DNA of 64,000 nt from Anaerolineales bacterium (GTDB taxonomy: Bacteria > Chloroflexota > Anaerolineae > Anaerolineales > UBA11858). This document shows positions 4,005 to 17,372 of the stretch, in pieces. The stretch is taken from the NCBI GenBank assembly GCA_021108255.1, contig JAIORG010000072.1, positions 95-64,094 on the forward strand, given 5' to 3'. The position numbers and the translations under genes are program-made. Numbering within the stretch: the first letter of the stretch is position 1; each line of letters begins with the position of its first letter. Below the pieces are notes generated by a model that made no database searches, had not been told where the DNA came from, and saw only the letters and a program-made list of their open reading frames with translations.

Positions 4005-5195
4005 TCACAAGCAAATACTCCTGTTAGAGGTCGTTAAAATATTCCCCAACCTCTGACGCGCGAGTTTGATTTTGGGGCAACAAGCATTAACCAATGATTC
4101 TGGTGAGCAACCAGGATGTTCGATGTAATAATTCAGCGCGATTTTCCCCTCAAAATCACAGTTGGCAAGCCGCAGCGCCAGATTTTCTAGGGCATCCCCA
4201 AAAGCTGTTCCGGGCAACGTGGCGACCTGAATCTTGTCGAGCAGGTGCATTGCCAATTGCTCGCTCGTTTTAACGTCTTTTTCAAAAAGTTGATCCCGAA
4301 AGGCGCCGAAGTTTGGATATAGGTAAAATGCCCCTTCTAGAACAGGATACTTAATACCCAGAGAAATAAGACCATCTCGCACGTATGATGAAATAATGCT
4401 GTGGATTTTGGTGCAGGTATTAATGTAATCTTCAACTACCGGCTCGTTTTCAAATGTTTTGAGTGATGCAAATTGTATCGGGGCAGATACAGCAGACCAG
4501 GTTTCACTGGCAATGCCGATCATTGCCGCATATATTGAATTAAGTGCCTTTGGAACGAACGCGACACCCAATCTGTATCCTCCTAATGATAAATGCTTCG
4601 ACAGACCGCTGGTGACAATGGTTCCCTCCGGGTAAAACTTTGCGATGCTGGCATGGTTTTGCTGGTAATTTACCAGTTCATAGATTTCGTCCGAAATAAC
4701 AAGAATGCCTTGTTTTCTGCACACCTGGGCTATTTGCTCCAGTCTGCTCTGGGGCATGGTCAAACCGGAGGGGTTGTTAGGGTAATTGATGTTTAGTTTT
4801 TTAGGATTCATCCCTTTCTGCCTGGCGACCACAATAGCTTTCTCCAAACTTTCAGCTGTGATATGGTAATTATCTGACATGGTGGCGGGAATTTTTATTA
4901 TAGGATCGCCGATGAGCACAGCTTGTGGCGCATAACTTACCCACGAAGGGATCGGAAGCAGCAAATCTCCTTCAACGGCCAATTGAATATCATAAATCAG
5001 TTCTTTGCTTCCAGGCCCAACGACAGTCTTGAAGTCGTCGGCATTAAACCCAAATTTCTCGGATAAATAGTGACGGGAAAGTTCTCTCAACTCAGGGAGG
5101 CCGGCTGAGGGCAAGTACATATTCTGACCTGCATTGACCGCTAAGGCTTCCCGGATTAACGGATGCACAGGAAAAGGGGATTGACCAAAACCCAT
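4005..5195 (-). CDS. Class I/II PLP aminotransferase (AspC-like); the 5' end appears frameshifted
   Basis: Family motifs are present: GFGQSPFP, NYPNNPSG, SDEIY, SGLSKHLSLGGYRLG (PLP lysine). Conserved N-terminal residues (TFSPTLEINERV...) continue upstream of the ATG in frame but have no start codon. See the corresponding finding. Confidence 0.85.
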   Translation of the reverse strand: MGFGQSPFPVHPLIREALAVNAGQNMYLPSAGLPELRELSRHYLSEKFGFNADDFKTVVGPGSKELIYDIQLAVEGDLLLPIPSWVSYAPQAVLIGDPIIKIPATMSDNYHITAESLEKAIVVARQKGMNPKKLNINYPNNPSGLTMPQSRLEQIAQVCRKQGILVISDEIYELVNYQQNHASIAKFYPEGTIVTSGLSKHLSLGGYRLGVAFVPKALNSIYAAMIGIASETWSAVSAPIQFASLKTFENEPVVEDYINTCTKIHSIISSYVRDGLISLGIKYPVLEGAFYLYPNFGAFRDQLFEKDVKTSEQLAMHLLDKIQVATLPGTAFGDALENLALRLANCDFEGKIALNYYIEHPGCSPESLVNACCPKIKLARQRLGNILTTSNRSICL

Positions 5196-5346
5196 ATGAA
5201 GCAGTTCTTGACCTCGTTCGCGCTCAAATCGGACGCGCTCGTTGATCTCAAGCGTGGGGGAAAATGTATCTTTCCAGCGCTTGCGCGGATATTAAAAGTG
5301 GATTCTCGGGTTTTTGGAGATGGCTTCATTTTATTGATATCTTGGA

Positions 5347-6135
5347 TTATAAAGTGCTATTCCCTGCGATGAGAACTTCCACAGATTGAGCTGATAAAGA
5401 TTCGCGAGCGGCTACATCAAAGGTGTCATCTGTAATCAGGCTGTGGATTTTTTCAATATTGGCAACCATATAATTTGAAACGGTTCCCCATTTGCTGTGA
5501 TCCGCCACAATGTAGACCGGACCACGGGTACGCTCCATCATGGTGCGCACTACTTCAGCCTCATCGCTGGTCGGGAAAGTACAGCCATATTTTAGACTGA
5601 TACCATCAATACCAATGAAAGTTTTATCGGCGTAGACTTGCTTAAGGTTATCAATAGAAAAATATCCGCCCACCGAAAGGGAAATTGATTGATATATCCC
5701 ACCCAGCAAGATCAGCTCAAAGCCAATGGTATTGATCTCCAAAGCAGCAAATAAATTATTGGTGATAATAGTGATGTCGGCGTTTGGGCGTATATGGCGA
5801 ATAATTTCTGTCGTGGTCGTGCCCCCATTGATAAAAACAACATCCCCATCTTCGATTAAAGAGGCGGCTAACTGACCTATCAAACGCTTCTCGTTGGGAC
5901 AATCTAGCAGCCTCTGTTGATATTCTGGTTCCCGTGATAATCGTTGACTGAGTACCGCACCACCATGAGTGCGCTCGAGAAAACCCGTCTCTTCGAGTTT
6001 CTCAAGATCACGTCGAATAGTAGCTTCTGAAGTATCTAACATTTTACTCAAATCAGCAAGGCGCGCCACTTTGTGGGTTGTCAAATATTCTTGAATTCGC
6101 TCGCATCTTTGAGCTGGTATTAAAGATTTGCTCAT
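5347..6135 (-). CDS. DeoR/GlpR-family transcriptional repressor
   Basis: N-terminal wHTH (RCERIQEYLTTHKVARLADLSKMLDTSEATIRRDLEKLEE) and a C-terminal DeoR sugar-phosphate sensor domain (FINGGTTT, IGIDGIS). Confidence 0.9.
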   Translation of the reverse strand: MSKSLIPAQRCERIQEYLTTHKVARLADLSKMLDTSEATIRRDLEKLEETGFLERTHGGAVLSQRLSREPEYQQRLLDCPNEKRLIGQLAASLIEDGDVVFINGGTTTTEIIRHIRPNADITIITNNLFAALEINTIGFELILLGGIYQSISLSVGGYFSIDNLKQVYADKTFIGIDGISLKYGCTFPTSDEAEVVRTMMERTRGPVYIVADHSKWGTVSNYMVANIEKIHSLITDDTFDVAARESLSAQSVEVLIAGNSTL

Positions 6136-6223
6136 AATAATAATCGGTTTTTTAGGTGTTTATGCTGTAAAATGACAGAATTTGAGCTGTTAGTGGTAAA
6201 ATTGTAGCAGATTTTGAAAATAT

Positions 6224-6252
6224 TTGCAAACTTTCTCGTTTATCGGTATAAT
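6224..6252 (+). promoter_or_regulatory. Candidate promoter of the kinase-aldolase-aminotransferase-HAD operon
   Basis: TTGCAA (6224-6229), a 17-nt spacer, then TATAAT (6247-6252). Confidence 0.4.
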
Positions 6253-6261
6253 GCCGATGTT

Positions 6262-6296
6262 ATTACACTTTCAACATTTGGGTTAATTTGTGTAAT
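6262..6296. promoter_or_regulatory. Inverted repeat ATTACAC-N21-GTGTAAT between promoter and start codon (possible operator)
   Basis: Perfect 7-bp arms at 6262-6268 and 6290-6296, in the DeoR/kinase divergent region. Confidence 0.3.
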
Positions 6297-6322
6297 GTAA
6301 AAAATATAATTGAAGCCAAATT

Positions 6323-7237
6323 ATGACTTTGACTATAGATGAAGCAATTGCTCGCGTCCCGCAATGGGGTAACGCTACAGATCTGAAAGCTTCCCCTCTT
6401 GCTGGGGGTATTACCAATACGAACTTCCGCATAGAAGTGAACGGGAAAAATTTTGTTCTCCGTATCCCGGGGGCAGATACCGAATTATTAGGAATTGTTC
6501 GCTCAGCCGAATGTGCCGTCAGTAAAGCTGCGGGGGAAATTGGCATCGGGCCAGAAATTTTTTATGTCATCAAGCCGGAAGGATACCTGGTCACGAGTTT
6601 CATTGAAGGGCACCTGCCTTCGATTGAGGAGCTTGGTCAACCCGGTAACATTCGCCGCGTCGCTGACACAATCAGCCGGATCCATGAAATGGCTCCGATT
6701 TCTGAAAGGTTCTCTCCATTCCGGGTAGTCGAAGATTCAGCTGAAATTGCCCGCCGATTCAATGTTGACTTTCCTGATAATTTCGGCTGGCTTATTAAGC
6801 AGATGAACGCTGCTGAAACAGCGCTGTTGAAATCCCCTTTTACTCCAAGGCTTTGCCACAATGATTTGCTCAACGCAAATTTCCTCGACGATGGTCAAAT
6901 ACGTGTTTTGGACTGGGAATATGCCGGGATGGGCGATCCTGTTTTTGATCTGGCCAATTTCTCTGTCCACCATGAATTCACAGATGAACAAGATCGCTGG
7001 CTGCTGGAATGCTATTTTGGTGAAGTTACCGGGGCTAATTGGGCCCGGATAAAGTTGCTGAAGGTCATTTCCGATTTCCGCGAGGGCATGTGGGCGATGG
7101 TACAGATTGGTATCTCAAAACTTGATTTTGACTTTCGTGGTTATGCCGACAAATATTTCGCTCGCACGACCCAGGGGAAGGAGGGGGAGGAGTGGCAGCT
7201 ATGGCTCAAAGATGTTTGTTTAAACAACAAAGCGTGA
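6323..7237 (+). CDS. Choline/ethanolamine-kinase-type phosphotransferase (APH superfamily)
   Basis: Brenner motif HNDLLNANFL and the choline-kinase motif VLDWEYAGMGDPVFDLANF are present, together with an N-terminal GGITN nucleotide loop. Confidence 0.75.
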   Translation: MTLTIDEAIARVPQWGNATDLKASPLAGGITNTNFRIEVNGKNFVLRIPGADTELLGIVRSAECAVSKAAGEIGIGPEIFYVIKPEGYLVTSFIEGHLPSIEELGQPGNIRRVADTISRIHEMAPISERFSPFRVVEDSAEIARRFNVDFPDNFGWLIKQMNAAETALLKSPFTPRLCHNDLLNANFLDDGQIRVLDWEYAGMGDPVFDLANFSVHHEFTDEQDRWLLECYFGEVTGANWARIKLLKVISDFREGMWAMVQIGISKLDFDFRGYADKYFARTTQGKEGEEWQLWLKDVCLNNKA

Positions 7238-7282
7238 CGGACATAACATATTAATGATATACAAGAGCAGGAGATTTTCCTA

Positions 7283-7420
7283 ATGCCTAAACTTTCTTCA
7301 CCCGCACGCGTTATTACCGTTGGTGGCGTTACCTGCACTTGCAGTGCGGCGCAAGTGTACGGTGAAAAGAAGCGCCCTTACAATTGCTTAAAAACCAAAA
7401 AATATTGGCAAATATCGTAA
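7283..7420 (+). CDS. Possible small Cys-containing ORF (45 aa) in the kinase-aldolase gap
   Basis: AGGAGA lies about 9 nt upstream of ATG 7283. Translation: MPKLSSPARVITVGGVTCTCSAAQVYGEKKRPYNCLKTKKYWQIS. It is below the track length cutoff and I recognise no homology. Confidence 0.2.
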   Translation: MPKLSSPARVITVGGVTCTCSAAQVYGEKKRPYNCLKTKKYWQIS

Positions 7421-7433
7421 ATAGGAGATTACT

Positions 7434-8309
7434 ATGTCAATTGTTACCGCAAAAGAAATTATGTTAGAAGCCGCCGAAGGCAAATATGCTGTTGGGGCAT
7501 TCAATATTACAAACCTGATACAAATGGAAGCCGTTGTCGAGGCTGCTGTTGAAAAGAAGGCACCGCTCATCATACAGACTTCGGTCACGCCCTCAAAATT
7601 CCTGGGCCTGGAGATTCTCGTGTCCATCTATAGGATCTTGGCCGAGTCTGCCCCCATCCCGATTTGTTTGCACCTGGATCACAGCACCAGTGTGGAATAT
7701 TGCAAACAATGCGCCGACGCTGGTTACACCAATATCATGATTGATGCCTCTAAACAAGCCTACGAAGAGAATATCAGTCAGACCAAAGAGGTTGTGGAAT
7801 ACTGCCATGGCATTGGCGGTATTTCAGTCGAGGGCGAATTGGGTACCGTTTCCGGGGTGGAGGATCAGGTAAAGGTGGCAGAAGATGAGGCCGCCCTTTG
7901 CAACCCGGAGCAAGCCGTTGAGTTCGTCGAACGCACCAGTGTAGATATTTTTGCTCCGGCGATTGGAACAGCGCACGGTGTTTACAAAACGAAAAACCCA
8001 AAAGTAGACTTTGAACGTCTGGGCAAAATCAATCAAATGCTCAACGGCAATGGGATTAAAACACCGCTGGTAGTGCATGGCGGTACAGGATTGAGTAAAG
8101 AATATGCTATCAAACTTGTTGAAATGGGAGGCGCGAAATTCAATGTCTCTACTGAATTAAAGCGCACCATGATTGATGCCACTTATGACTATATCTCAGA
8201 AAATCGAGAACAGTATAACCCCGGCAAGATCGATGTTGTTGTCAAAGATGCCATCCGGCAGGTTGTTGCAAGGTGGATTGATATATTAGGAAGCGCAGGA
8301 AAAGCGTAA
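7434..8309 (+). CDS. Class II ketose-bisphosphate aldolase (FbaA/GatY/KbaY family)
   Basis: Family motifs are present: GAFN, LHLDH, MIDAS, VEGELG, and HG..G with the C-terminal KFNV.TEL. GGAG lies 8 nt upstream. Confidence 0.9.
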   Translation: MSIVTAKEIMLEAAEGKYAVGAFNITNLIQMEAVVEAAVEKKAPLIIQTSVTPSKFLGLEILVSIYRILAESAPIPICLHLDHSTSVEYCKQCADAGYTNIMIDASKQAYEENISQTKEVVEYCHGIGGISVEGELGTVSGVEDQVKVAEDEAALCNPEQAVEFVERTSVDIFAPAIGTAHGVYKTKNPKVDFERLGKINQMLNGNGIKTPLVVHGGTGLSKEYAIKLVEMGGAKFNVSTELKRTMIDATYDYISENREQYNPGKIDVVVKDAIRQVVARWIDILGSAGKA

Positions 8310-8324
8310 AGGAGAAATGACACA

Positions 8325-9422
8325 ATGAAACCGATCCAAGACTACTTCGTCCCCTGGGTGAAGGGCATACCCATGTATGTTTCGGAGCATATTGAGCTGG
8401 CCTGGCGAAAGCCAGAACTGCATCGCATGATGTCTAATGAGAACCCGCATCCCCCATCGAAGAAAGTGCAAGAAGCCATTCAAAAATATAGTGATTTTGC
8501 CAACCGCTACCCCGATCAGGGTATGGTTGTGCGTTCAAAGATTGCTGAGATCAGCGGAATGAGCGGACCGGAAAATGTGATGATCGGAAACGGATCGAGT
8601 GAAGTTTTCGATAATATCTTCAGGAGCTTCCTCCAGGTAGGAGAAGAGGTTATTCAGCACACTCCATGCTTCGGCATCTATAAACTACGCTGTAATATTC
8701 TCGGGGGTGAACTTGTCTCTGTTCCGATGGTATATGAGGACAAACAATTAAAATTCGACATAGATGCTATTCTGGCCGCGATCACCAATAAAACCAAGAT
8801 CATCGTCGTTGCCAATCCGAACAACCCCACAGGCAATTTCATGAACACTGAAGACTTCATCAAGATCGCCGAGACGGGCATCCCCTTCATCATTGATGAG
8901 GCCTATATTGAATATTCAGGCCTTGAAAAGTCGCAGGTTGGACTGATCAAGAAATATAAGAATGTGCTCGTCACGCGCACGCTCTCCAAAGCTTACGGCT
9001 TGGCCGGAATGCGCTTCGGATATGCGCTCGGACACGAGGAAGTAATCGGTCAAATATCTGCGGCATTACTGCCCTGGAATGTCGGGACGATTCCGATGTG
9101 GGCTGCGTTGGCGGCTCTGGAAGATGCCGAAGGGCTGACCGAACGAATCGAATTCAACAACCGCGAAGTGGCATATATTGAGGATGCACTCAGCGATATC
9201 CCCGGGTTTATCATCTTTCACTCTGTCTCTAATTACATCCTTTTCGACGGGACGGATACAGGAAAAAAGGGAGATGATTTGGTCGCCTTTGCTCAAGAGA
9301 AGGGCATCATTCTCCGCCCGCAATCCCATCTGTATGGACGAAACGGTTGGTTCCGACTGACCCTGGGCACCCAAGATGAAAATCGTATGGCAGTTGCAGT
9401 AATTCGCGAGTTCTACGCTTAG
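8325..9422 (+). CDS. HisC/CobD-type class II aminotransferase (histidinol-phosphate aminotransferase family)
   Basis: Family motifs are present: SNENP, YPD, GNGSSE, NPNNPTG, IDEAY.EY, RTLSKAYGLAGMRFGY. Confidence 0.85.
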   Translation: MKPIQDYFVPWVKGIPMYVSEHIELAWRKPELHRMMSNENPHPPSKKVQEAIQKYSDFANRYPDQGMVVRSKIAEISGMSGPENVMIGNGSSEVFDNIFRSFLQVGEEVIQHTPCFGIYKLRCNILGGELVSVPMVYEDKQLKFDIDAILAAITNKTKIIVVANPNNPTGNFMNTEDFIKIAETGIPFIIDEAYIEYSGLEKSQVGLIKKYKNVLVTRTLSKAYGLAGMRFGYALGHEEVIGQISAALLPWNVGTIPMWAALAALEDAEGLTERIEFNNREVAYIEDALSDIPGFIIFHSVSNYILFDGTDTGKKGDDLVAFAQEKGIILRPQSHLYGRNGWFRLTLGTQDENRMAVAVIREFYA

Positions 9423-9489
9423 TCATCAGATAAAAAACCGGAGGGGGTGGTTATTCACCATCCGGTTTTGAAAAGAGAGGAGAATTCCA

Positions 9490-10254
9490 ATGATAAAGAT
9501 AAAAGCAGTTTTTTTCGATCAGGATGGTGTCATCATCGATACCGAACGAGACGGGCATCGAGTCGCGTTCAATCAGACATTCAAAGATTTTGGATACGAT
9601 TTTGAATGGGATGTGGAGTATTACCACGAGCTGCTGCAAGTTGCTGGTGGTAAAGAGCGCATGAAACACCACCTGCACACCCAGGGGTTTGGCGTTGAAG
9701 TTAAACCTGAGGAAGTTGATGATCTCATAATAAGAATGCACAAACATAAAACGGCTGTCTTCGTCGAATTGATCGAAAGCGGAGATTTGCCGCTGCGCCC
9801 CGGGGTTAAACGGCTGATGAAAGAGGTCAACGATGCGGGCTTGATTCTGGGTATCTGCACAACATCCAATGAACGCGCGGCACAGGCTGTTGTTAGTGGG
9901 ATGCTCAAGGAGATCAAATTCGAATTTGTCTTGGCTGGCGATATCGTTGATAATAAAAAACCTGATCCCGAAATCTATAATTTAGCCCTCGAAAAGACCG
10001 GGGTAAAACCTGAAGAGTCCGTGGTAATAGAAGATTCGAGGAACGGTGTACTTGCAGCAGCAGCAGCTGGATTGAACATCGTCGCTACCACCAATATCTA
10101 CACTGCAAGCGAGAATCTTTCAGATGCCCATATTATTGTTACCTGCCTTGGCGATCTCGGTGGAGAAAAAGGCATATTAAAGAAAGGAAGTGAAGGTCTC
10201 AAATACGACGGTGTGCTGCGGCTTGAGCAGCTGATGGACTATTTCTCAAAGTAG
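9490..10254 (+). CDS. HAD-IA family phosphatase (CbbY/PGMB-like)
   Basis: HAD motifs FFDQDGVIIDTE (DxD), CTTS, K(K)PDPEIY and EDSRNG are present. Confidence 0.85.
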   Translation: MIKIKAVFFDQDGVIIDTERDGHRVAFNQTFKDFGYDFEWDVEYYHELLQVAGGKERMKHHLHTQGFGVEVKPEEVDDLIIRMHKHKTAVFVELIESGDLPLRPGVKRLMKEVNDAGLILGICTTSNERAAQAVVSGMLKEIKFEFVLAGDIVDNKKPDPEIYNLALEKTGVKPEESVVIEDSRNGVLAAAAAGLNIVATTNIYTASENLSDAHIIVTCLGDLGGEKGILKKGSEGLKYDGVLRLEQLMDYFSK

Positions 10255-10722
10255 AGCCTAACCCGGACAAGCCGGGTACCAGATGGACCTCTGGCCACCA
10301 CAAAAGCATGAGGGATTCGAAGAAAATCTTTGTTACCCCCCCCATGTCCTATATGTTACGAGGATTCCTGAAGACTCCTCAGAAAAGGCAGCAAACTTTG
10401 GTAAACATGTTTTTGTTGTTATTTAGTTTTACAGTATAATAAATTTATTACAGTAACAACCATATCATTTATCATAGATTGGCACAGCAGGCGTAGAGAC
10501 ACATAGGTTGGGGGGTTAGCATATAGTTATTCAATTAAATGACCTATGAGAGGTTCTACTGAGCGCAACTGCAAGCTTCTTGAATTCGACTTTTTATTAT
10601 TCAAATTATTTAACCATTGTTTAGGAGGTGGTCCTATACAAGTTAGAAGAAATGGACAACTCACGATATTACCAAGCAAAAACAATTCGTTCTTCTATCA
10701 AAAAACTATTAAGGAGAAGAAA

Positions 10723-12816
10723 ATGTTCAAGAAAAAAGGACTATGGCTCATCACGTTAGTGCTGCTCTTAGCCCTAATGTTGGGCGCATGCGCCCCTGAG
10801 TCGCCGGCTGAAGAAGAAGCAGCGCCGGCTGAAGAAGAAGCAGCACCAGCTGAAGAAGAAGCAGCGCCAGCCGAAGAAGCTGGCTGCCCCGCCGTTACCA
10901 TCGCAGATCGCGCTGGGGTTGCCGCTGGTGAGTATGAGCGTCTCTACGAATTGGCCGATTACGAAGTTGCAGCTGATTGCACCATGGTTTTTGCTGGCAA
11001 CCCAGACATGGCTGATCTTAATGCCCAAATTACCAACAACCCTGAGCTACCCCCAGTAGAAGAACGTGTTCCTGCTGAGCCGCTAGTCGTTGTGCCTTAC
11101 GAGGCTATTGGTCAATATGGTGGCACTTTCCACGCAACTTCAAACGCAACTGAGTCAGGTACTTCTGACTTTTTAGCAGTTCGGCATGTAAATTTCACTC
11201 GCTTTAGCGATGATTACGTTACGATCGAACCTAATATAGCCATTGGCTGGGAATGGAATGATGACTTCACAGAAGTAACATTCTACTTGCGTGAAGGTCA
11301 CAAATGGTCAGATGGTGCGCCATTCACATCAGCAGATGTTGCATTCTGGATGAATGATATTGTTCTCAATACTGATATTTATGAGAATACACCTAGCTGG
11401 GTTCAATTTGGCGACGGTACAATGACTGTTGAAGTGATTGATGCCACAACAGTCAAATTCGTCTTCCCCGTGCCAACCCCAGGCATTGTGAGCTTCTTTG
11501 CAACCTCCTTCCGCCAACCCTTCCAACCCAAACATTTCTTCGACGCAAAAGTTGCTGAAGGAATGACTTTTGTTGATGCAGTTACACTCTACTACGGTCT
11601 TAGTGACTGGACAGATGTCCCCTCCCCACTACTTGGTGAAAAAGCGGACGATGTAAAACCCACGCTTGAATCCCATATTCTGGTTGAAGAGACCACTGAA
11701 GGGCGTCGCCTGGTTGCCAACCCTTACTTCTATATGGTTGATACAGCCGGAAATCAATTGCCCTATATCAACGAACAAGATGAAATCTACGTCCAAGACC
11801 AAGAAGTTCGTAACTTGAAAATCACCAACGGTGAAGTTGACTACAAAGTTCAGTCAATCTCCATCATCGATTACCCCCTCTACAAAGACCATGAAGCAGA
11901 CGGCAATTACACTGTTGACTTAGGCTCCGGTGTTGGCGCGAATTTGTTCTATGCTTTCAACTTGACCCACGAAGATGAAGGCTTACGCGAAATTTTCATG
12001 GATCTTCGCTTCCGTCAGGCAATGTCTATTGCTATCGACCGAGACGAAATCGTTGAGTTGATCTATCTTGGTCAGGCTGAACCCATGCAAGCCACCCCCG
12101 CAGACGGCAATACTGTCAACTTCGTCACGGCAGAACATGAGAATGCCTATGTTGAATACGATCTGGCTGGTGCCAATGCACTGCTCGACGAAATGGGTCT
12201 AGTGGATGTTGATGGCGATGGTCTCCGTGAGCGTGCAGATGGCTCCGCTCTTGCGATTGAACTCCAATACTCCACCCAAAGTGGTCCTGCTCAAATTCAA
12301 GAATTGGTAAAGAGCTATTGGGATGCCGCTGGCATTGCTACCACCCTTAAAGAAGTTACCTCTGACGAATATCGTGAAAGAGGGACGACTAATGGGGCGG
12401 ATATCGTCACTTGGTTGTATGATGCTACAACTGGTCCAGTTATCGTTCTAGATACCGCCATGCTTTTGCCACCCTTCGGATACGCTTTCAATCCTGGTCT
12501 GGCTTATGGATGGGAAGAATGGCATAACACGGACGGTGCTTCAGGTATTGAGCCGCCAGCCGATGTACTAGAATTGTACGACCTTGTCGCAGAATTCCTC
12601 CAATACCCTCTTGGCTCAGCAGAAAGCGATGCCGTAGGTGAAAAGATTGTTGATATTCATGTAGATAATCTACTCAAAATTGGTATTGCCGGCAATATTC
12701 AAATGCCTATCATTCATACCAATAACTTGGGCAACTTCGGTCCTTATACTGTAGTAAGCTACGACTACTACCGTGTTTACCCAATGATTCCATCACAATG
12801 GTACTTCACTGATTAA
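10723..12816 (+). CDS. ABC transporter substrate-binding lipoprotein, family 5 (Opp/Dpp/oligosaccharide type)
   Basis: AAGGAG lies 7 nt upstream of ATG 10723. A signal peptide with lipobox LGAC is followed by a repeat linker and then a family-5 SBP body. The track start 10546 is rejected. Confidence 0.9.
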   Translation: MFKKKGLWLITLVLLLALMLGACAPESPAEEEAAPAEEEAAPAEEEAAPAEEAGCPAVTIADRAGVAAGEYERLYELADYEVAADCTMVFAGNPDMADLNAQITNNPELPPVEERVPAEPLVVVPYEAIGQYGGTFHATSNATESGTSDFLAVRHVNFTRFSDDYVTIEPNIAIGWEWNDDFTEVTFYLREGHKWSDGAPFTSADVAFWMNDIVLNTDIYENTPSWVQFGDGTMTVEVIDATTVKFVFPVPTPGIVSFFATSFRQPFQPKHFFDAKVAEGMTFVDAVTLYYGLSDWTDVPSPLLGEKADDVKPTLESHILVEETTEGRRLVANPYFYMVDTAGNQLPYINEQDEIYVQDQEVRNLKITNGEVDYKVQSISIIDYPLYKDHEADGNYTVDLGSGVGANLFYAFNLTHEDEGLREIFMDLRFRQAMSIAIDRDEIVELIYLGQAEPMQATPADGNTVNFVTAEHENAYVEYDLAGANALLDEMGLVDVDGDGLRERADGSALAIELQYSTQSGPAQIQELVKSYWDAAGIATTLKEVTSDEYRERGTTNGADIVTWLYDATTGPVIVLDTAMLLPPFGYAFNPGLAYGWEEWHNTDGASGIEPPADVLELYDLVAEFLQYPLGSAESDAVGEKIVDIHVDNLLKIGIAGNIQMPIIHTNNLGNFGPYTVVSYDYYRVYPMIPSQWYFTD
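10804..10880 (+). repeat. In-frame 21-bp tandem repeat (about 3.6 copies) encoding (PAEEEAA)n
   Basis: CCGGCTGAAGAAGAAGCAGCG at 10804, 10825 (1 mismatch) and 10846 (1 mismatch), plus a partial fourth copy. It lies directly after the lipobox cysteine. Confidence 0.9.
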
Positions 12817-12828
12817 TAGCTTGACACG

Positions 12829-12866
12829 AAACCTGACAGGTCTTTAAGACCTGTCAGGTTTTTTGA
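12829..12866 (+). terminator. Strong Rho-independent terminator after the SBP gene
   Basis: 12-bp stem ACCTGACAGGTC / GACCTGTCAGGT with loop TTTAA, followed by a T6 run. Confidence 0.75.
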
Positions 12867-13084
12867 AAATATGGATATAAAGCCGCATCGCACATGATTT
12901 TGGCTGGGGTGCTGAATCTCAAGCAGATTAACGGCGTGAGCAGAAAAATGTCTGCGCCGAGAAGATGTTGATAAATGGCAAGCAAGTTAAAATCACACCC
13001 GCCGCTCCGCTTCGAATGCAGGCGCGCGGCTCGGCTTTTCATCCCATAAAAAAATAACATTTCTTATATTCCCGCATTAATCAT

Positions 13085-13141
13085 TGTAGTAAGGGGTTCA
13101 GCTCTTTCGTTCATAGCACAAGGACTGAAGCCCTTACTACA
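13085..13141 (+). other. Long stem-loop immediately upstream of the permease RBS
   Basis: 17-bp stem with one mismatch, TGTAGTAAGGGGTTCAG (13085-13101) / CTGAAGCCCTTACTACA (13125-13141), and a 23-nt loop. The RBS GGGAG follows at 13143. Confidence 0.5.
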
Positions 13142-13155
13142 AGGGAGAAGAAGAT

Positions 13156-14151
13156 ATGGTCAAATTTCTAGTTCAACGCATTATCGGCATGGCAGTCACA
13201 ATGTTCTTCGTGTCGATCATGGTATTCATTATTATGGAGCTTCCTCCGGGGGATTATGCAGAGCGATGGGCGTTCCGTAAATTTTCGGGGACAGGTGCTC
13301 AGATCACCGAAGCAGACCTCGACAATATTCGGGCGAACTTTGGGCTTGATCGCCCCGCCCCAGAGCGTTATTTTAAGTGGATCAGTGGGATTGTCTTACA
13401 CGGCGATTTTGGCGAAGCCTTTGCTTTTCAAACCTCCGTTAATAATGTTATTGGTCAAAAAATCTGGTTAACGCTTGCAATTCTTTTTTCGACATTGATC
13501 GTAACGTATCTTGTGGCGATACCGGTCGGAATCTACGCAGCTATCAGGCGTGGTTCCGCTGAAGATTATGCGCTGACGGTTTTTAGTTATTTGGGATTTG
13601 CCTTGCCTAACTTTTTGCTGGCTTTGGTCTTGCTATATATCTCCATCACCGTTTTCGATTCCTCTGTCGGCGGGCTTTTTTCACCCGAATACGCAGATGC
13701 CCCTTGGAGTACAGCAAAAGCTCTAGACCTTCTCAGCCATCTTATCATTCCCTCTATTATTTTGGCTTGGTCAGCCACCGCTTTTCAACTCCAGACAGTT
13801 CGAGCGACCATGCTCGACGAGCTTAATAATTTGTCTGTGACGGCTGCCCGCGCACGCGGTGTCCCCGAGTGGAAATTGCTGCTCAAATACCCCGCTCGTT
13901 TAGCGATCAATCCTGTTGTCAGTACGATGAGTTTTGATGCCAATCGTATCTTTTCGGAGCTACCGATTGTTGCTCTTGTTTTGGGATTACCCGAACTTGG
14001 TGAACTCTTGCTCAAGTCCTATCTCGATTTGGATATGTTTGTAGCGGGTGCAATTTTGCTCATCCTGACATTTATGATTGTCTTCATGAATTTTCTCTCC
14101 GATATTTTCCTCGCGATTTTAGACCCGCGAGTTAAGCTAATAGAAGGTTAA
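13156..14151 (+). CDS. ABC transporter permease (DppB/OppB type)
   Basis: Six TM segments, a family-5 system permease, with the EAA-like loop ...VTAARARGV.... Confidence 0.9.
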   Translation: MVKFLVQRIIGMAVTMFFVSIMVFIIMELPPGDYAERWAFRKFSGTGAQITEADLDNIRANFGLDRPAPERYFKWISGIVLHGDFGEAFAFQTSVNNVIGQKIWLTLAILFSTLIVTYLVAIPVGIYAAIRRGSAEDYALTVFSYLGFALPNFLLALVLLYISITVFDSSVGGLFSPEYADAPWSTAKALDLLSHLIIPSIILAWSATAFQLQTVRATMLDELNNLSVTAARARGVPEWKLLLKYPARLAINPVVSTMSFDANRIFSELPIVALVLGLPELGELLLKSYLDLDMFVAGAILLILTFMIVFMNFLSDIFLAILDPRVKLIEG

Positions 14152-14156
14152 GGGAT

Positions 14157-15311
14157 ATGACAACTACCGATTTATCCACTCAAGAAGTACAGGCTCCCAT
14201 TACCCAAATGGAATCAGAAGAGGCACAGCGTTATTATTCAGCCTCCCAATTTCAATTAATTTGGTGGCGATTTCGTAAACATCGCCTTGCGCGAACGGGG
14301 GCACTTATTCTGCTCACAATGGCTCTGGTAGGACTTTTTGCTGAATTTGTTGGTCCCTACTCAGGCATAACCCGCGTCAGTGAAGCTGTCTTAGTTGCTC
14401 CTCAAGCTCCGCAATTTTGCAATGATGATGGCTGCTCCTTACGCCCCTTCTTACCCGGCATCACATCAGAGCGTAACACAGAAACTTTGCGGATGGAAAC
14501 CAAAATTGACCCATCTGTTCGACGAGATATTTACTTCTTTGTCGAAGGCGAAGAATATAAATTACTTGGCATGTTCAAAATGAACACGCATCTCTTTGGC
14601 GTAGAAGAAGGCTCGATTCATCTCTTAGGAACCGATAGTCTAGGACGAGATATTTTCTCTCGTACCCTTCTTGCTACTCGAACATCTTTATCCATTGGTA
14701 TTATCGGTGTCATCATTGCCTTTGTGCTGGCTTTGGTAATTGGTGGCGTAGCGGGCTACTTTGGCGGTGGGCTTGATTACGCAATTCAACGTCTAACCGA
14801 AATTGTGCGCGTTATCCCTGTAATTCCTCTCTATATGGGGTTAGCAGCAGCTTTTCCTAAAGAATGGTCATCTACCCAAGTTTACTTTGCTATGACGCTG
14901 GTTTTGGCTCTCGTTGGTTGGCCCACCTTAGCCCGTCGTATTCGAGGCAAATTATTAAGTCTGCGTGGTGAAGATTACGTCATCGCTGCCAGTCTCGCTG
15001 GTGCCGGACCTAGTCGCATTATTGGGCGGCATTTACTGCCAGCCTTTATGAGCTATATCATCGTTGACTTGGTCATCTCCTTCCCGTTCATGCTCTTGAG
15101 CGAAACAGCACTTAGCTTTGTTGGATTGGGACTACGTCCCCCAACAGTGAGCTGGGGTGTTCTTTTACAGGATGCCCAAACGGTTCGCGCCATTGAGCAA
15201 GCTCCATGGCTCTTTATACCGGCTCTTTTTGTAATCGTCGCAGTGCTATCCTTTACTGTTTTAGGTGATGGCTTGCGCGATGCCGCAGACCCATATCAAG
15301 TGAGTGGCTAG
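14157..15311 (+). CDS. ABC transporter permease (DppC/OppC type)
   Basis: Long N-terminal extracytoplasmic loop followed by the BPD_transp_1 core (YVIAASLAGAGPSRII). It starts 5 nt after the preceding gene. Confidence 0.9.
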   Translation: MTTTDLSTQEVQAPITQMESEEAQRYYSASQFQLIWWRFRKHRLARTGALILLTMALVGLFAEFVGPYSGITRVSEAVLVAPQAPQFCNDDGCSLRPFLPGITSERNTETLRMETKIDPSVRRDIYFFVEGEEYKLLGMFKMNTHLFGVEEGSIHLLGTDSLGRDIFSRTLLATRTSLSIGIIGVIIAFVLALVIGGVAGYFGGGLDYAIQRLTEIVRVIPVIPLYMGLAAAFPKEWSSTQVYFAMTLVLALVGWPTLARRIRGKLLSLRGEDYVIAASLAGAGPSRIIGRHLLPAFMSYIIVDLVISFPFMLLSETALSFVGLGLRPPTVSWGVLLQDAQTVRAIEQAPWLFIPALFVIVAVLSFTVLGDGLRDAADPYQVSG

Positions 15312-15322
15312 GAGATAATTTC

Positions 15323-16348
15323 ATGGCAAAAACAAAAGAAATGACCAATAACAATCTCTTAGAGGTAAAAGATCTCAAAATTTCCTTTAAGACAGATGAA
15401 GGGATTATCACCGCCGTTGACGGAATTAAATTTTCAGTCAAACGTGGTCAAACATTAGGGATTGTTGGCGAAAGTGGCTCAGGGAAAAGCGTAAGCACAT
15501 GGTCGATTATGCGCCTTTTACCCAAGAACTCGATCATAGATAAAAAATCTTCGATTAAATTTCAACAAAAAAGTGGAAAAGTTGTTGAGATTACCAAGTT
15601 CAAATCAAATAGCCGAGAACTTCGTGAAATTCGTGGAGGTGAAGTTGCATTGATTTTTCAGGAACCTATGAGTTCCTTTTCACCCGTTTATACGATCGGC
15701 AACCAAATTATGGAAGCGGTGCTACAGCATAGAGATGTTACGAAGGAAGAAGCGCAAGAAATCGCTATAGATATGCTTGATAGAGTCGGGATTTCAAATC
15801 CCGCTCAGCGTTTTAAACAATATCCTTTTGAACTCTCAGGTGGGATGCGCCAACGAGCAATGATAGCGGTTGCGCTCTCAATGAATCCATCATTGCTAAT
15901 CGCTGATGAGCCGACTACCTCCTTAGACGTAACCATTCAAGCCCAAATTCTTGAGCTAATGAACGAATTGCAAGAAGAATTGGGGATGTCAATCATCTTC
16001 ATTACGCATAACTTGGGTGTTATCGCTCAAGTCGCAGATGAAATTGAAGTTATGTATCTCGGCAAAATCTTGGAACGTGGCACAACAAACGATATTATTC
16101 ACGAGCCACAGCATCCTTATACCCAAGCTTTATTAAAGGCTATTCCACGTTTGGACACCATTGGAGAACGGCTCACTGCGATTAGTGGCGATATTCCCAG
16201 CCCGTTATCACGACCGATTGGTTGCCCTTTTTACACACGCTGTGAAAAAGTAATGCCCGGCATCTGCGATGTTAAAATGCCAGAGCCAACTCAACTCAGC
16301 GATACCCATACTGTATATTGTTTCTTATACGAGGAAAAAAATGTCTGA
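15323..16348 (+). CDS. ABC transporter ATP-binding protein (OppD/DppD type)
   Basis: Walker A GESGSGKS, signature LSGGMRQR, Walker B LLIADEPTT, and the C-terminal oligopeptide-type motif GCPFYTRC. Confidence 0.9.
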   Translation: MAKTKEMTNNNLLEVKDLKISFKTDEGIITAVDGIKFSVKRGQTLGIVGESGSGKSVSTWSIMRLLPKNSIIDKKSSIKFQQKSGKVVEITKFKSNSRELREIRGGEVALIFQEPMSSFSPVYTIGNQIMEAVLQHRDVTKEEAQEIAIDMLDRVGISNPAQRFKQYPFELSGGMRQRAMIAVALSMNPSLLIADEPTTSLDVTIQAQILELMNELQEELGMSIIFITHNLGVIAQVADEIEVMYLGKILERGTTNDIIHEPQHPYTQALLKAIPRLDTIGERLTAISGDIPSPLSRPIGCPFYTRCEKVMPGICDVKMPEPTQLSDTHTVYCFLYEEKNV

Positions 16349-17372
16349 TACCTTACTTGAAATCAAAGACTTAAAAGTTTATTTTCCCATTCGTAGAAAG
16401 AACTTATTTAGTGGGGTTACGCAATATGTAAAAGCTGTGGATGGTGTTAGTTTTCATATCGAAAAAGGGGAAACGCTCGGTCTTGTTGGCGAAAGTGGCT
16501 CTGGAAAAACGACTGTAGGGCGTTCCATTCTGCGCGCAATTGAACCGACTGCCGGAAAAGTTACCTTTAATGTGGACGGAGAAACGATTGATTTATCCAC
16601 ATTATTAGATAAAGAATTGCGTGTTTTTCGTAAAAACATGCAACTAATTTTTCAAGACCCCTACTCTTCGCTCAATCCGCGCATGACGGTGCGCGATATT
16701 ATCGCCGAACCCATCGTCGCGCAGAAATTAGCCAAAGGTGATGAAGTGGACGAGCGTGTGCGTGAAGCCGCAGCACTCTGTAAACTCAACCTAGAATTTT
16801 TACGCCGTTTCCCCCATGCTTTTAGCGGTGGGCAAAGGCAGCGCATCGGCATTGCTCGCGCCCTTGTTTCCCGCCCGCAGTTTATCGTTTGCGATGAGTC
16901 AGTCTCTGCGCTCGATGTCTCTATTCAGGCAGAAATTCTCAATTTGCTGATGGATTTGCAAAAAGAATTCGGTTTCACTTTTCTCTTCATCGCCCATGAT
17001 TTGAGCGTGGTCGCCCATATTTCCAAACGTGTTGCGGTGATGTATTTGGGGCAACTTGTTGAGTTAGCACCTACAGAAGACCTTTTCTACACCCCAAAAC
17101 ACCCCTACACCGAAGCATTAATGTCTGCAATCCCAGAAGTTGACCCGAATCAGGAAATGAATCCTGTAAATTTGAGTGGTGAAATCCCAAGCCCTATTAA
17201 TCCTCCCTCTGGTTGCCGCTTTCATACTCGCTGCCCTTATGTCCAAGATATTTGCAAGACAGATGAGCCAAAATGGGAAGAAATTGAAGAGAAGCATTTT
17301 GTAACCTGCCATTTTGCCAACACGCTCACACTAAAGGGCGCAAAAATGCCACCTTCGGTAGATGCCGCTTAA
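16341..17372 (+). CDS. ABC transporter ATP-binding protein (OppF/DppF type)
   Basis: Walker A GESGSGKT, signature FSGGQRQR, Walker B FIVCDESVS, and GCRFHTRCP. Start set to ATG 16341 (MSDTLLEIKDL...), which overlaps the upstream stop by 8 nt. Confidence 0.9.
   Translation: MSDTLLEIKDLKVYFPIRRKNLFSGVTQYVKAVDGVSFHIEKGETLGLVGESGSGKTTVGRSILRAIEPTAGKVTFNVDGETIDLSTLLDKELRVFRKNMQLIFQDPYSSLNPRMTVRDIIAEPIVAQKLAKGDEVDERVREAAALCKLNLEFLRRFPHAFSGGQRQRIGIARALVSRPQFIVCDESVSALDVSIQAEILNLLMDLQKEFGFTFLFIAHDLSVVAHISKRVAVMYLGQLVELAPTEDLFYTPKHPYTEALMSAIPEVDPNQEMNPVNLSGEIPSPINPPSGCRFHTRCPYVQDICKTDEPKWEEIEEKHFVTCHFANTLTLKGAKMPPSVDAA

Follow-up and report, generated by a model that had tools for sequence, protein, structure and literature searches.

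A DeoR-linked operon in an Anaerolineales bacterium and a predicted route from ethanolamine to xylulose-5-phosphate

Gene content and control of the locus

This study concerns a four-gene operon, transcribed divergently from the gene of a DeoR-family repressor, in an uncultured Chloroflexota/Anaerolineales bacterium. The window, that is, the whole stretch of DNA analysed, spans 64,000 nucleotides of contig JAIORG010000072.1. It belongs to an assembly (G000) of 2.98 Mb in 298 contigs that is 93.7% complete; related genomes and related loci are designated Gnnn and Lnnn, respectively. Gene families were assigned by Pfam and NCBIfam model scores. An initial annotation, made without database searches, had described a kinase, a class II aldolase, a HisC-like aminotransferase and a HAD phosphatase reading away from a DeoR gene that is co-oriented with an AspC-like gene. 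The open reading frames (ORFs) do lie at the positions claimed, the four operon genes are intact, and both model collections agree with the families proposed. The operon and its control region comprise the following features:

5347..6135, minus strand: DeoR-family repressor (HTH_DeoR 58 bits, DeoRC 145 bits)
6136..6322: divergent control region (promoter scan and conserved blocks)
6323..7237, plus strand: choline/ethanolamine-kinase-family (Choline_kinase/APH) kinase (PF01633 80 bits, PF01636 68 bits)
7283..7420, plus strand: 45-codon ORF, the decayed 5' remnant of a DMGDH-like N-demethylase gene (N-terminal identity, position, strand)
7434..8309, plus strand: class II ketose-bisphosphate aldolase (PF01116 293 bits)
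8325..9422, plus strand: HisC-like class I/II pyridoxal phosphate (PLP) aminotransferase (PF00155 165 bits, TIGR01141 263.9 bits)
9490..10254, plus strand: CbbY-like HAD-IA phosphatase (HAD-IA 106 bits; closest solved structures CbbY)

In the control region, a promoter scan identified TTGCAA-17 nt-TATAAT at 6224-6252 on the plus strand, ahead of the kinase gene, and an overlapping minus-strand partner at 6229-6201. Conservation of the promoter hexamers, and of two upstream blocks, extends to L041, L042, L044, L045, L046 and L047, and the conserved blocks within 6136-6322 are candidate DeoR operators. Effectors of DeoR-family regulators are typically sugar phosphates, and the repressor may keep the operon silent until a phosphorylated intermediate builds up.

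Linkage, distribution and selection

The comparison set comprised 80 kinase loci from species-level genomes. Among these, 48 were informative, as their sequence extends 6.5 kb or more beyond the kinase on the 3' side, and 46 had sufficient sequence 5' of it. The aldolase was found in 36 of the 48 informative loci, the aminotransferase in 37 and the HAD gene in 36, and all three stood together in 35. Moreover, the DeoR gene diverged from the kinase in 37 of the 46 loci. All retained core genes are under purifying selection (ratio of non-synonymous to synonymous substitution rates, dN/dS, 0.03-0.18), with values of 0.08-0.11 for DeoR. The linkage persists down to approximately 50% kinase identity and recurs in a second phylum. 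The kinase was found in none of the 24 same-genus genomes searched. Of 16 other families in the order, 5 have it. Genome-neighbourhood conservation of the kinase/aldolase/HisC-like trio, which the initial annotation had put forward as a check, is therefore strong. Altogether, the gene arrangement exceeds chance, and a five-gene core recurs across many species-level genomes.

The kinase and the HisC-like aminotransferase

The nearest solved relatives of the kinase are 3dxq (137 bits) and the choline kinase LicA (4r77, 70 bits). The protein matches the choline/ethanolamine kinase family (PF01633) with both the Brenner and the choline-kinase motifs intact: H179, D181 and N186, together with the D197-W-E199-Y motif, are invariant among 9 orthologues (alignment A1). 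We predict that it is an ethanolamine kinase, and possibly a choline kinase too. Assignment as GntI, the pre-guanitoxin N-oxide kinase of guanitoxin biosynthesis (NF041256), was rejected, as the score of 295 bits lies below the equivalog cut-off of 357 and no other gnt genes are present.

The aminotransferase has the residues expected of the class I/II PLP fold (PF00155). Active-site inspection of this protein had been suggested by the initial annotation, and alignment to E. coli HisC (1fg3) found N157, D184, Y187, K214 and R222 conserved, as well as R322, R335 and the N-terminal Tyr. We take R322 and R335 to be substrate-anchoring (phosphate/carboxylate-binding) and Asp85 to be imidazole-binding. 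In the window protein, which falls in a narrow clade, Asp85 (E. coli numbering) is replaced by Ser within the motif GSSE; the near clade reads GS[ST]E, and the solved HisCs (1fg3, 8bj1 and 3ffh) read G[AV]DE.

On the TIGR01141 model, the window protein stays under the equivalog cut-off (263.9 against 276.55 bits). The cluster copies of G041, G042 and G043 score 259, 271 and 258 bits, and separate true HisC genes are found in G042 (325 bits), G043 (292 bits) and G044 (310 bits). Although the window aminotransferase is the best hisC-model match in G000, neither histidinol dehydrogenase (hisD, PF00815) nor imidazoleglycerol-phosphate dehydratase (hisB, PF00475) was found in that genome, with controls positive in 14 of 14 genomes. 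Hence, the aminotransferase is not a histidine-pathway gene, and plain histidine biosynthesis, which the initial annotation had named as a possible refutation, is ruled out by the missing hisD and hisB and by the score under the cut-off.

A sister aminotransferase in L127 (46% identity) directly follows a PhnS2-type ABC transporter (TIGR03261, 325 bits). This model is annotated as 2-aminoethylphosphonate transport, and the compound is the phosphonate isostere of phosphoethanolamine. The neighbours of the sister enzyme thus point to the phosphoethanolamine class of substrates, and we predict that the HisC-like enzyme of the window is a phosphoethanolamine transaminase. The L127 segment itself (L127:3755-10385) holds the transporter, the sister aminotransferase and then a 361-aa protein without family match, and may represent an undescribed aminoethylphosphonate-type catabolic unit. 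A class V aminotransferase in L048, considered as a PhnW-like replacement, is actually a NifS/IscS-type cysteine desulfurase.

The class II aldolase

PF01116 covers the aldolase over its full length (positions 1-277 of 277). The protein exceeds the cut-off of the ketose-bisphosphate aldolase subfamily TIGR00167 (258 bits against 215.6), lies under that of TIGR01859 (287 bits against 343), and scores nearly equally on the fructose-bisphosphate (FBP) and tagatose-bisphosphate aldolase models. Homologues are absent from 27 of 30 same-genus genomes, and the remaining 3 hold relatives of 32-37% identity only. The aldolase is therefore not the housekeeping FBP aldolase (FBA) of the genus, an assignment that the TIGR01859 score and the phylogeny also contradict: cluster aldolases form a clade of their own (support 97/96, with some long branches), outside which lie the other copies of G041 and G043. 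Full-cluster genomes carry 2 or 3 PF01116 copies, and PF01791-type aldolase candidates were found across the genus. The initial annotation had also named a sole glycolytic Fba as a possible refutation. The window gene is the only strong PF01116 gene in G000 but is missing from those 27 same-genus genomes, and its proposal is not refuted on this point. We predict that the enzyme joins dihydroxyacetone phosphate (DHAP) and glycolaldehyde phosphate into xylulose-1,5-bisphosphate (XuBP).

These distributions bear on the suggestion that the operon is a chance assembly of housekeeping genes, namely an aromatic or histidinol aminotransferase, a glycolytic FBP aldolase, a generic sugar phosphatase and an unrelated kinase. 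In G000, the ranking of both enzymes on their family models would fit such a view, as would the best solved relative of the aminotransferase, a putative phenylalanine aminotransferase. However, G000 lacks the histidine pathway, the aldolase and the kinase are missing from most or all same-genus genomes searched, and cluster-bearing genomes have true HisC and other FBA copies elsewhere. Together with a linkage that survives to about 50% kinase identity and reappears in a second phylum, these results already largely refute chance adjacency, to which we give hardly any credence.

The CbbY-like phosphatase

The initial annotation had treated the last gene as a generic HAD-IA phosphatase; it is instead a relative of the CbbY-type XuBP 1-phosphatases. 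Against solved structures, the protein scores 202 bits with Arabidopsis CbbYA (AtCbbYA, 4uav; about 50% identity over the full length, including the cap domain) and 148 bits with CbbY of Rhodobacter sphaeroides (RsCbbY, 4uar), whereas the next solved structure reaches 77 bits. The cap motifs HR.AFN, GGKER, H..KT and LRPG are common to the HAD protein and CbbY. On the RsCbbY-XuBP structure, 8 catalytic and 13 signature residues have been defined; the comparison made here covers motif conservation as a whole. CbbY acts on the C1 phosphate of XuBP alone, and its product is xylulose-5-phosphate (Xu5P); for the enzymatic preparation of XuBP, DHAP is added to glycolaldehyde phosphate in an aldol reaction (PMC10212915). 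The window protein is predicted to be a xylulose-1,5-bisphosphate 1-phosphatase yielding Xu5P. Given this affinity, cleavage of a ketose-1-phosphate is the less likely role for the aldolase; most probably it acts in the condensing direction, on DHAP and a C2 phospho-aldehyde.

No RuBisCO-family match was found in G041, G042, G043 and G045, that is, in 4 of the 5 cluster-bearing genomes examined besides G000. In G044 and G000, RuBisCO-family matches reach only about 100-108 bits, which suggests that these ORFs are probably RuBisCO-like proteins. The two in G000 (G000:C38:7263-7766 and G000:C34:12499-13203) are RuBisCO-large-family ORFs of 388 and 393 aa, at about 100 bits. In cluster genomes without true RuBisCO, XuBP must arise elsewhere.

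Proposed route

We propose that the operon encodes a catabolic route from ethanolamine through phosphoethanolamine to glycolaldehyde phosphate, which would combine with DHAP to give XuBP and then Xu5P. We put the probability of this reading at roughly 0.57; its substrates and reactions are all inferred from the gene families, linkage, selection and alternative gene sets observed. The kinase would turn ethanolamine into phosphoethanolamine. With a 2-oxo acid as amino acceptor, the HisC-like aminotransferase would then produce glycolaldehyde 2-phosphate, which the class II aldolase would condense with DHAP to D-xylulose-1,5-bisphosphate. Finally, the CbbY-like HAD protein would strip the C1 phosphate, and the resulting Xu5P would enter the pentose phosphate pathway.

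Several elements of the initial annotation survive in this scheme: an amino-alcohol kinase, a HisC-type transaminase acting on an O-phosphate ester, a DHAP-linked aldolase and DeoR control. Its ketose-1-phosphate cleavage by the aldolase does not. The same annotation had called the route undescribed, and full-text literature searches agree, as they returned no match and nothing relevant on phosphoethanolamine transamination, on glycolaldehyde phosphate or XuBP as catabolic intermediates, or on choline or ethanolamine catabolism in Anaerolineae. None of the enzyme families is new; what is not yet known is their proposed combination and two of its reactions.

Alternative gene sets in related loci

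The commonest left arm among related loci holds genes for a metallophosphoesterase-like protein, an MttB-family protein, PfkB, a first dimethylglycine dehydrogenase (DMGDH)-like enzyme (DMGDH_a) and DeoR. The divergent right arm holds an unknown protein of 263 aa, a four-CBS protein, the kinase, a second DMGDH-like enzyme (DMGDH_b), the aldolase, the aminotransferase and the HAD protein. DMGDH_b stands between kinase and aldolase in 41 of the 48 loci, an MttB-family gene is paired with the kinase in 14 of 46, and PfkB occurs in 15 of 46 left arms. In addition, an APC permease is found in 27 loci (the L119 copy belongs to the TIGR00907 subfamily), a GbcA-like Rieske oxygenase in 6, and electron-transfer flavoprotein (ETF) genes are also recurrent.

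The DMGDH-like, MttB, GbcA-like and APC genes suggest that N-methylated amines are handled, choline being the obvious candidate. In this longer version, N-demethylases would take choline or N-methylethanolamines down to the level of ethanolamine: most Anaerolineales relatives have two DMGDH/sarcosine-dehydrogenase-like enzymes, and some add the MttB-family methyltransferase or the GbcA-like oxygenase. We also considered whether the accessory genes form a plain pathway from glycine betaine to glycine. Except for the DMGDH-like enzymes, this explanation is weakened, as the cluster MttB of L030, aligned with MtgB (9yce), reads Y97S, R312G, H348N and F356L and thus lacks all four betaine-binding residues. 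Directly upstream of the kinase, 34-35 of 46 loci carry the pair formed by the 263-aa protein, with faint nucleotidyltransferase-like matches, and the four-CBS protein of 269 aa (for instance, L031:8306-9923); the pair is not in the window.

The demethylases are relevant to the substrate favoured by the initial annotation. In that proposal, phosphorylation of serinol or a 2-amino-alditol and then transamination lead to DHAP or to a ketose-1-phosphate for cleavage by the aldolase. To our knowledge, no natural N-methylated serinol exists, and demethylases in 41 of 48 loci would be left without explanation. Furthermore, serinol phosphate would yield DHAP directly, making the aldolase, the CbbY-type bisphosphatase and the transaldolase/transketolase substitutes described below needless, and both kinase family and permease type point to choline or ethanolamine. 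The proposal does draw on the retained pair of substrate-anchoring arginines, on the action of HisC-type enzymes on R-CH(NH2)-CH2-O-P esters, and on Cj1437 of Campylobacter jejuni, a DHAP/(S)-serinol-phosphate transaminase (PMC11800397). Ethanolamine is the likelier substrate, and we consider serinol or an amino-alditol quite improbable.

A second line of evidence comes from loci in which the aldolase and phosphatase are exchanged. A divergent transaldolase lies between DMGDH_b and the aldolase in 13 loci, and 4 loci have a transaldolase with neither the class II aldolase nor the CbbY-like HAD gene. L116 reads GntR, permease, kinase, transaldolase and aminotransferase, in a genome without any PF01116 gene. 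L119 holds a DMGDH-like gene, ETF beta and alpha, GntR, transaldolase, transketolase, APC permease, kinase and aminotransferase. Xu5P would be formed directly if a transaldolase transferred a dihydroxyacetone unit to glycolaldehyde phosphate, and replacement of the aldolase/CbbY pair by a transaldolase is the very exchange that the ethanolamine route predicts.

Two further loci, L130 and L131, carry relatives of the aminotransferase (37-38% identity), the class II aldolase (42%) and the CbbY-like HAD protein (48%), with a GntR regulator; a neighbouring protein with a Por_Secre_tail domain indicates that the contig is probably from Bacteroidota. The kinase is absent from these loci and an organophosphate antiporter of the GlpT/PgtP/UhpC family is present, as would be expected if the substrate of the aminotransferase were already a phosphate ester. 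L130 also encodes a 476-aa protein with a faint likeness to sulfoquinovose and arabinose isomerases (L130:4679-6109) and a secreted metallophosphoesterase of 1327 aa (L130:10800-14783), both outside the proposed route. In G044, a locus separate from the kinase/demethylase locus (L141; G044:C7:405000-424000, at about 5700-10600) holds GntR-controlled genes for a class II aldolase, a CbbY-like HAD protein, DhaL, a transaldolase and DhaK, and no aminotransferase. The transaldolase is of the cluster type, 67% identical to that of L093. The presence of DhaK and DhaL beside the aldolase, CbbY and transaldolase genes supports a supply of DHAP as the C3 unit.

The same gene sets speak to direction. 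The initial annotation had regarded biosynthesis as equally possible. On such a reading, lipids or surface polymers would draw their phosphoethanolamine, ethanolamine or phosphocholine head groups from sugar phosphates. The aminotransferase and aldolase reactions are reversible, and in C. jejuni the ethanolamine phosphate and serinol phosphate of the capsule are made by PLP enzymes and a HAD phosphatase (PMC11800397). However, uptake is indicated by the kinase and the importers (APC permease, organophosphate antiporter and ABC systems), the DMGDH-like demethylases with ETF are oxidative enzymes of catabolism, a CbbY-type phosphatase would make the XuBP step irreversible towards Xu5P, and the cluster contains no cytidylyltransferase or transferase genes. 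We therefore judge the biosynthetic direction very improbable.

The reduced version in the window

The window carries a shortened form of this module. No FAO_M-containing gene was found in G000, and hence there is no demethylase of that type anywhere in the genome. The gap between kinase and aldolase measures 196 nt and contains the ORF 7283-7420, in which 11 of the first 23 residues (48%) are identical to DMGDH_b N-termini and the GxGxxG FAD-binding motif is decayed. By this likeness, the ORF is the deletion scar of a DMGDH_b gene. The close relatives L042 and L045 retain DMGDH_b, and in L041 the slot is taken by an acetyl-CoA-synthetase-like gene. Since the window lacks demethylases, its module, reduced and still under selection, would handle only the primary amine. 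Neither EutB nor a phosphoketolase, the latter sought as an exit from Xu5P, was found in G000. The MttB gene is absent from the window cluster, so the co-localisation of kinase and MttB-family genes known from MthK/MthB is not seen there. Four MttB-family matches occur elsewhere in the genome (G000:C174, C17 and C194), with no DMGDH-like gene, and the host probably demethylates other quaternary amines.

Two further features flank the operon:

4005..5329 (ORF 4005-5195), minus strand: AspC-like class I/II aminotransferase, frameshifted near the 5' end (PF00155 132 bits)
10723..17372, plus strand: family-5 (Opp/Dpp-type) ABC importer with a binding protein, 2 permeases and 2 ATPases (SBP_bac_5, BPD_transp_1, ABC_tran, oligo_HPY)

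The AspC-like gene was found only in the window and in L041/L033. Compared with the 432-aa L041 orthologue, residues 23-432 lie in one frame and residues 1-28 in another, and the gene is either a pseudogene or an assembly error.

The ORF of the ABC binding protein opens at 10546, with a probable start at 10723. In the window-type loci L041, L044 and L047, a family-5 binding-protein gene lies directly 3' of the HAD gene. The importer may bring in the amine itself or one of its conjugates, much as the initial annotation had supposed; the conserved adjacency agrees with this, and the link rests on that adjacency. A DeoR operator common to the control region (6136-6322) and the ABC leader (10255-10722) was sought and dismissed, as the two share one 9-mer only, which is unconvincing.

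The importer also lends weight to an alternative in which the same logic applies to another amine, such as aminopropanol or an imported conjugate, and the aldolase and HAD protein act on FBP or tagatose bisphosphate instead of XuBP. Family-5 importers usually take up peptides, opines and oligosaccharides, some left arms hold PfkB sugar-kinase genes as noted above, the aldolase scores almost alike on the FBP and tagatose-bisphosphate models, and the substrates assigned to kinase and aminotransferase are predictions. Against this stand the clear affinity of the HAD protein to CbbY, the loci in which transaldolase and transketolase take the place of the aldolase/CbbY pair, the choline-type accessory genes with an ACT-type permease, and the aminoethylphosphonate-type transporter adjoining the sister aminotransferase. 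Overall, we consider another amine unlikely, albeit the most serious of the alternatives to ethanolamine.

Several other genes lie close to the cluster. A PHO4-family phosphate transporter and PhoU_div are encoded at 615-2404 of the window, and the pair lies near the cluster in 16-18 of 80 loci (L031, L044, L058, L116 and others), on either side and in either orientation; this proximity may reflect a functional link to phosphate release, or synteny only. Downstream of the ABC operon, the window has an NPP-type phosphodiesterase gene (PF01663; 18762-19604) followed by those of a class III aminotransferase and an aldehyde:ferredoxin oxidoreductase. In the closest relative, L033, a microcompartment locus (L033:1-6195) lies just upstream of the cluster, with genes for EutN/BMC shell proteins, an aldehyde dehydrogenase, a DeoC-like aldolase, an RpiB-like isomerase and GntR. 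This locus is absent from the window.

Points against the ethanolamine route

A number of observations weigh against the ethanolamine route. Approximately a quarter of the informative loci consist of kinase and DMGDH_b with no trio nearby. Conserved accessory genes, namely those of PfkB, the 263-aa protein, the CBS protein, a NUDIX protein and PHO4/PhoU, fall outside the scheme, which also leaves out the substrate of the ABC importer and the frameshifted AspC-like gene of the window. Transamination of a terminal amine is unusual for a HisC-family enzyme. In addition, the best solved relative of the aminotransferase is the putative phenylalanine aminotransferase 4r2n (163 bits), and a carboxylate substrate is thus possible. 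As the sole strong PF01116 gene of G000, the aldolase might have a dual role that includes housekeeping. Finally, the cluster MttB has Gly in place of MtgB R312, a residue reported to be conserved in MttB members with acidic substrates, including MthB. Lacking this Arg, it may demethylate free or phosphorylated bases, and demethylation may thus precede or follow the kinase step.

Comparison with known systems

Few nitrogen-containing products of membrane breakdown are more abundant than ethanolamine and choline, and the known bacterial routes for them pass through acetaldehyde (Eut), trimethylamine (CutC) or glycine betaine. The odds slightly favour the wider proposition that Anaerolineales and at least one other phylum use a carbon-conserving ethanolamine route to Xu5P, by way of either aldolase/CbbY or transaldolase. 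If so, this would be a fourth way to use ethanolamine or choline, with all carbon kept and with no need for an adenosylcobalamin-dependent lyase or a microcompartment. In its full form with N-demethylases, choline would be wholly consumed and neither trimethylamine nor acetaldehyde released. It would also entail a new enzyme activity, phosphoethanolamine aminotransferase, and would provide annotation for a gene set found widely in Anaerolineales, an order abundant in sediments, digesters and soils.

A direct precedent for phosphorylation of an amino alcohol before further processing is the MthK/MthB pair of Eubacterium limosum. There, the LicA-like kinase MthK phosphorylates choline, and the MttB-family protein MthB demethylates phosphocholine and not choline (PMC12155760). 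In E. limosum, a LicA-like kinase gene is divergently linked to an MttB-family gene, and Anaerolineales relatives pair the two in the 14 of 46 loci mentioned above. One methyl group is removed in E. limosum and dimethylaminoethanol is excreted (PMC12155760), whereas the Anaerolineales clusters, with two DMGDH-like demethylases and an aminotransferase/aldolase/CbbY module, would use the whole molecule. Unlike MthB, the cluster MttB lacks the conserved Arg, and the window has no demethylase at all.

The aminotransferase shares its fold, PLP residues and two substrate-anchoring arginines with HisC and with Cj1437 and Cj1436 of C. jejuni, which we take to be of the HisC/CobD family. It differs from HisC in its score under the equivalog cut-off, the lack of a histidine pathway in its genome, the change of Asp85 to Ser, and the separate true HisC of relatives. 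The C. jejuni PLP enzymes act on serinol phosphate and produce ethanolamine phosphate (PMC11800397); the literature searched held no example of the conversion predicted here, from phosphoethanolamine into glycolaldehyde phosphate. The PhnW/PhnX pathway likewise transaminates a 2-aminoethyl-phosph(on)ate to an aldehyde, and the sister clade of the window aminotransferase follows a PhnS2-type transporter. However, PhnW is a class V enzyme whose product is cleaved by phosphonatase, whereas in the window a class I/II HisC-like enzyme would be followed by aldol condensation.

Two established routes start from the same substrate, the EutBC ammonia-lyase with its microcompartment and the ethanolamine-phosphate phospho-lyase, and the latter also begins with a kinase and phosphoethanolamine. 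Both give acetaldehyde. The predicted route would involve no free aldehyde, adenosylcobalamin or microcompartment, and both carbons would be kept through the use of a C3 unit.

Finally, the reaction predicted for the HAD protein, XuBP to Xu5P and phosphate, is that of CbbY from R. sphaeroides and of CbbYA and CbbYB from Arabidopsis, to which it is alike in sequence. Known CbbY clears a misfire product of RuBisCO in Calvin-cycle organisms (PMC10212915), whereas the genome of the window is without true RuBisCO. Here, the CbbY-like gene lies in an operon that we read as catabolic, and XuBP would be a main-line intermediate, unlike in the known case. CbbY would thereby gain a central catabolic role outside the Calvin cycle, which would explain the occurrence of CbbY-like phosphatases in bacteria without RuBisCO.

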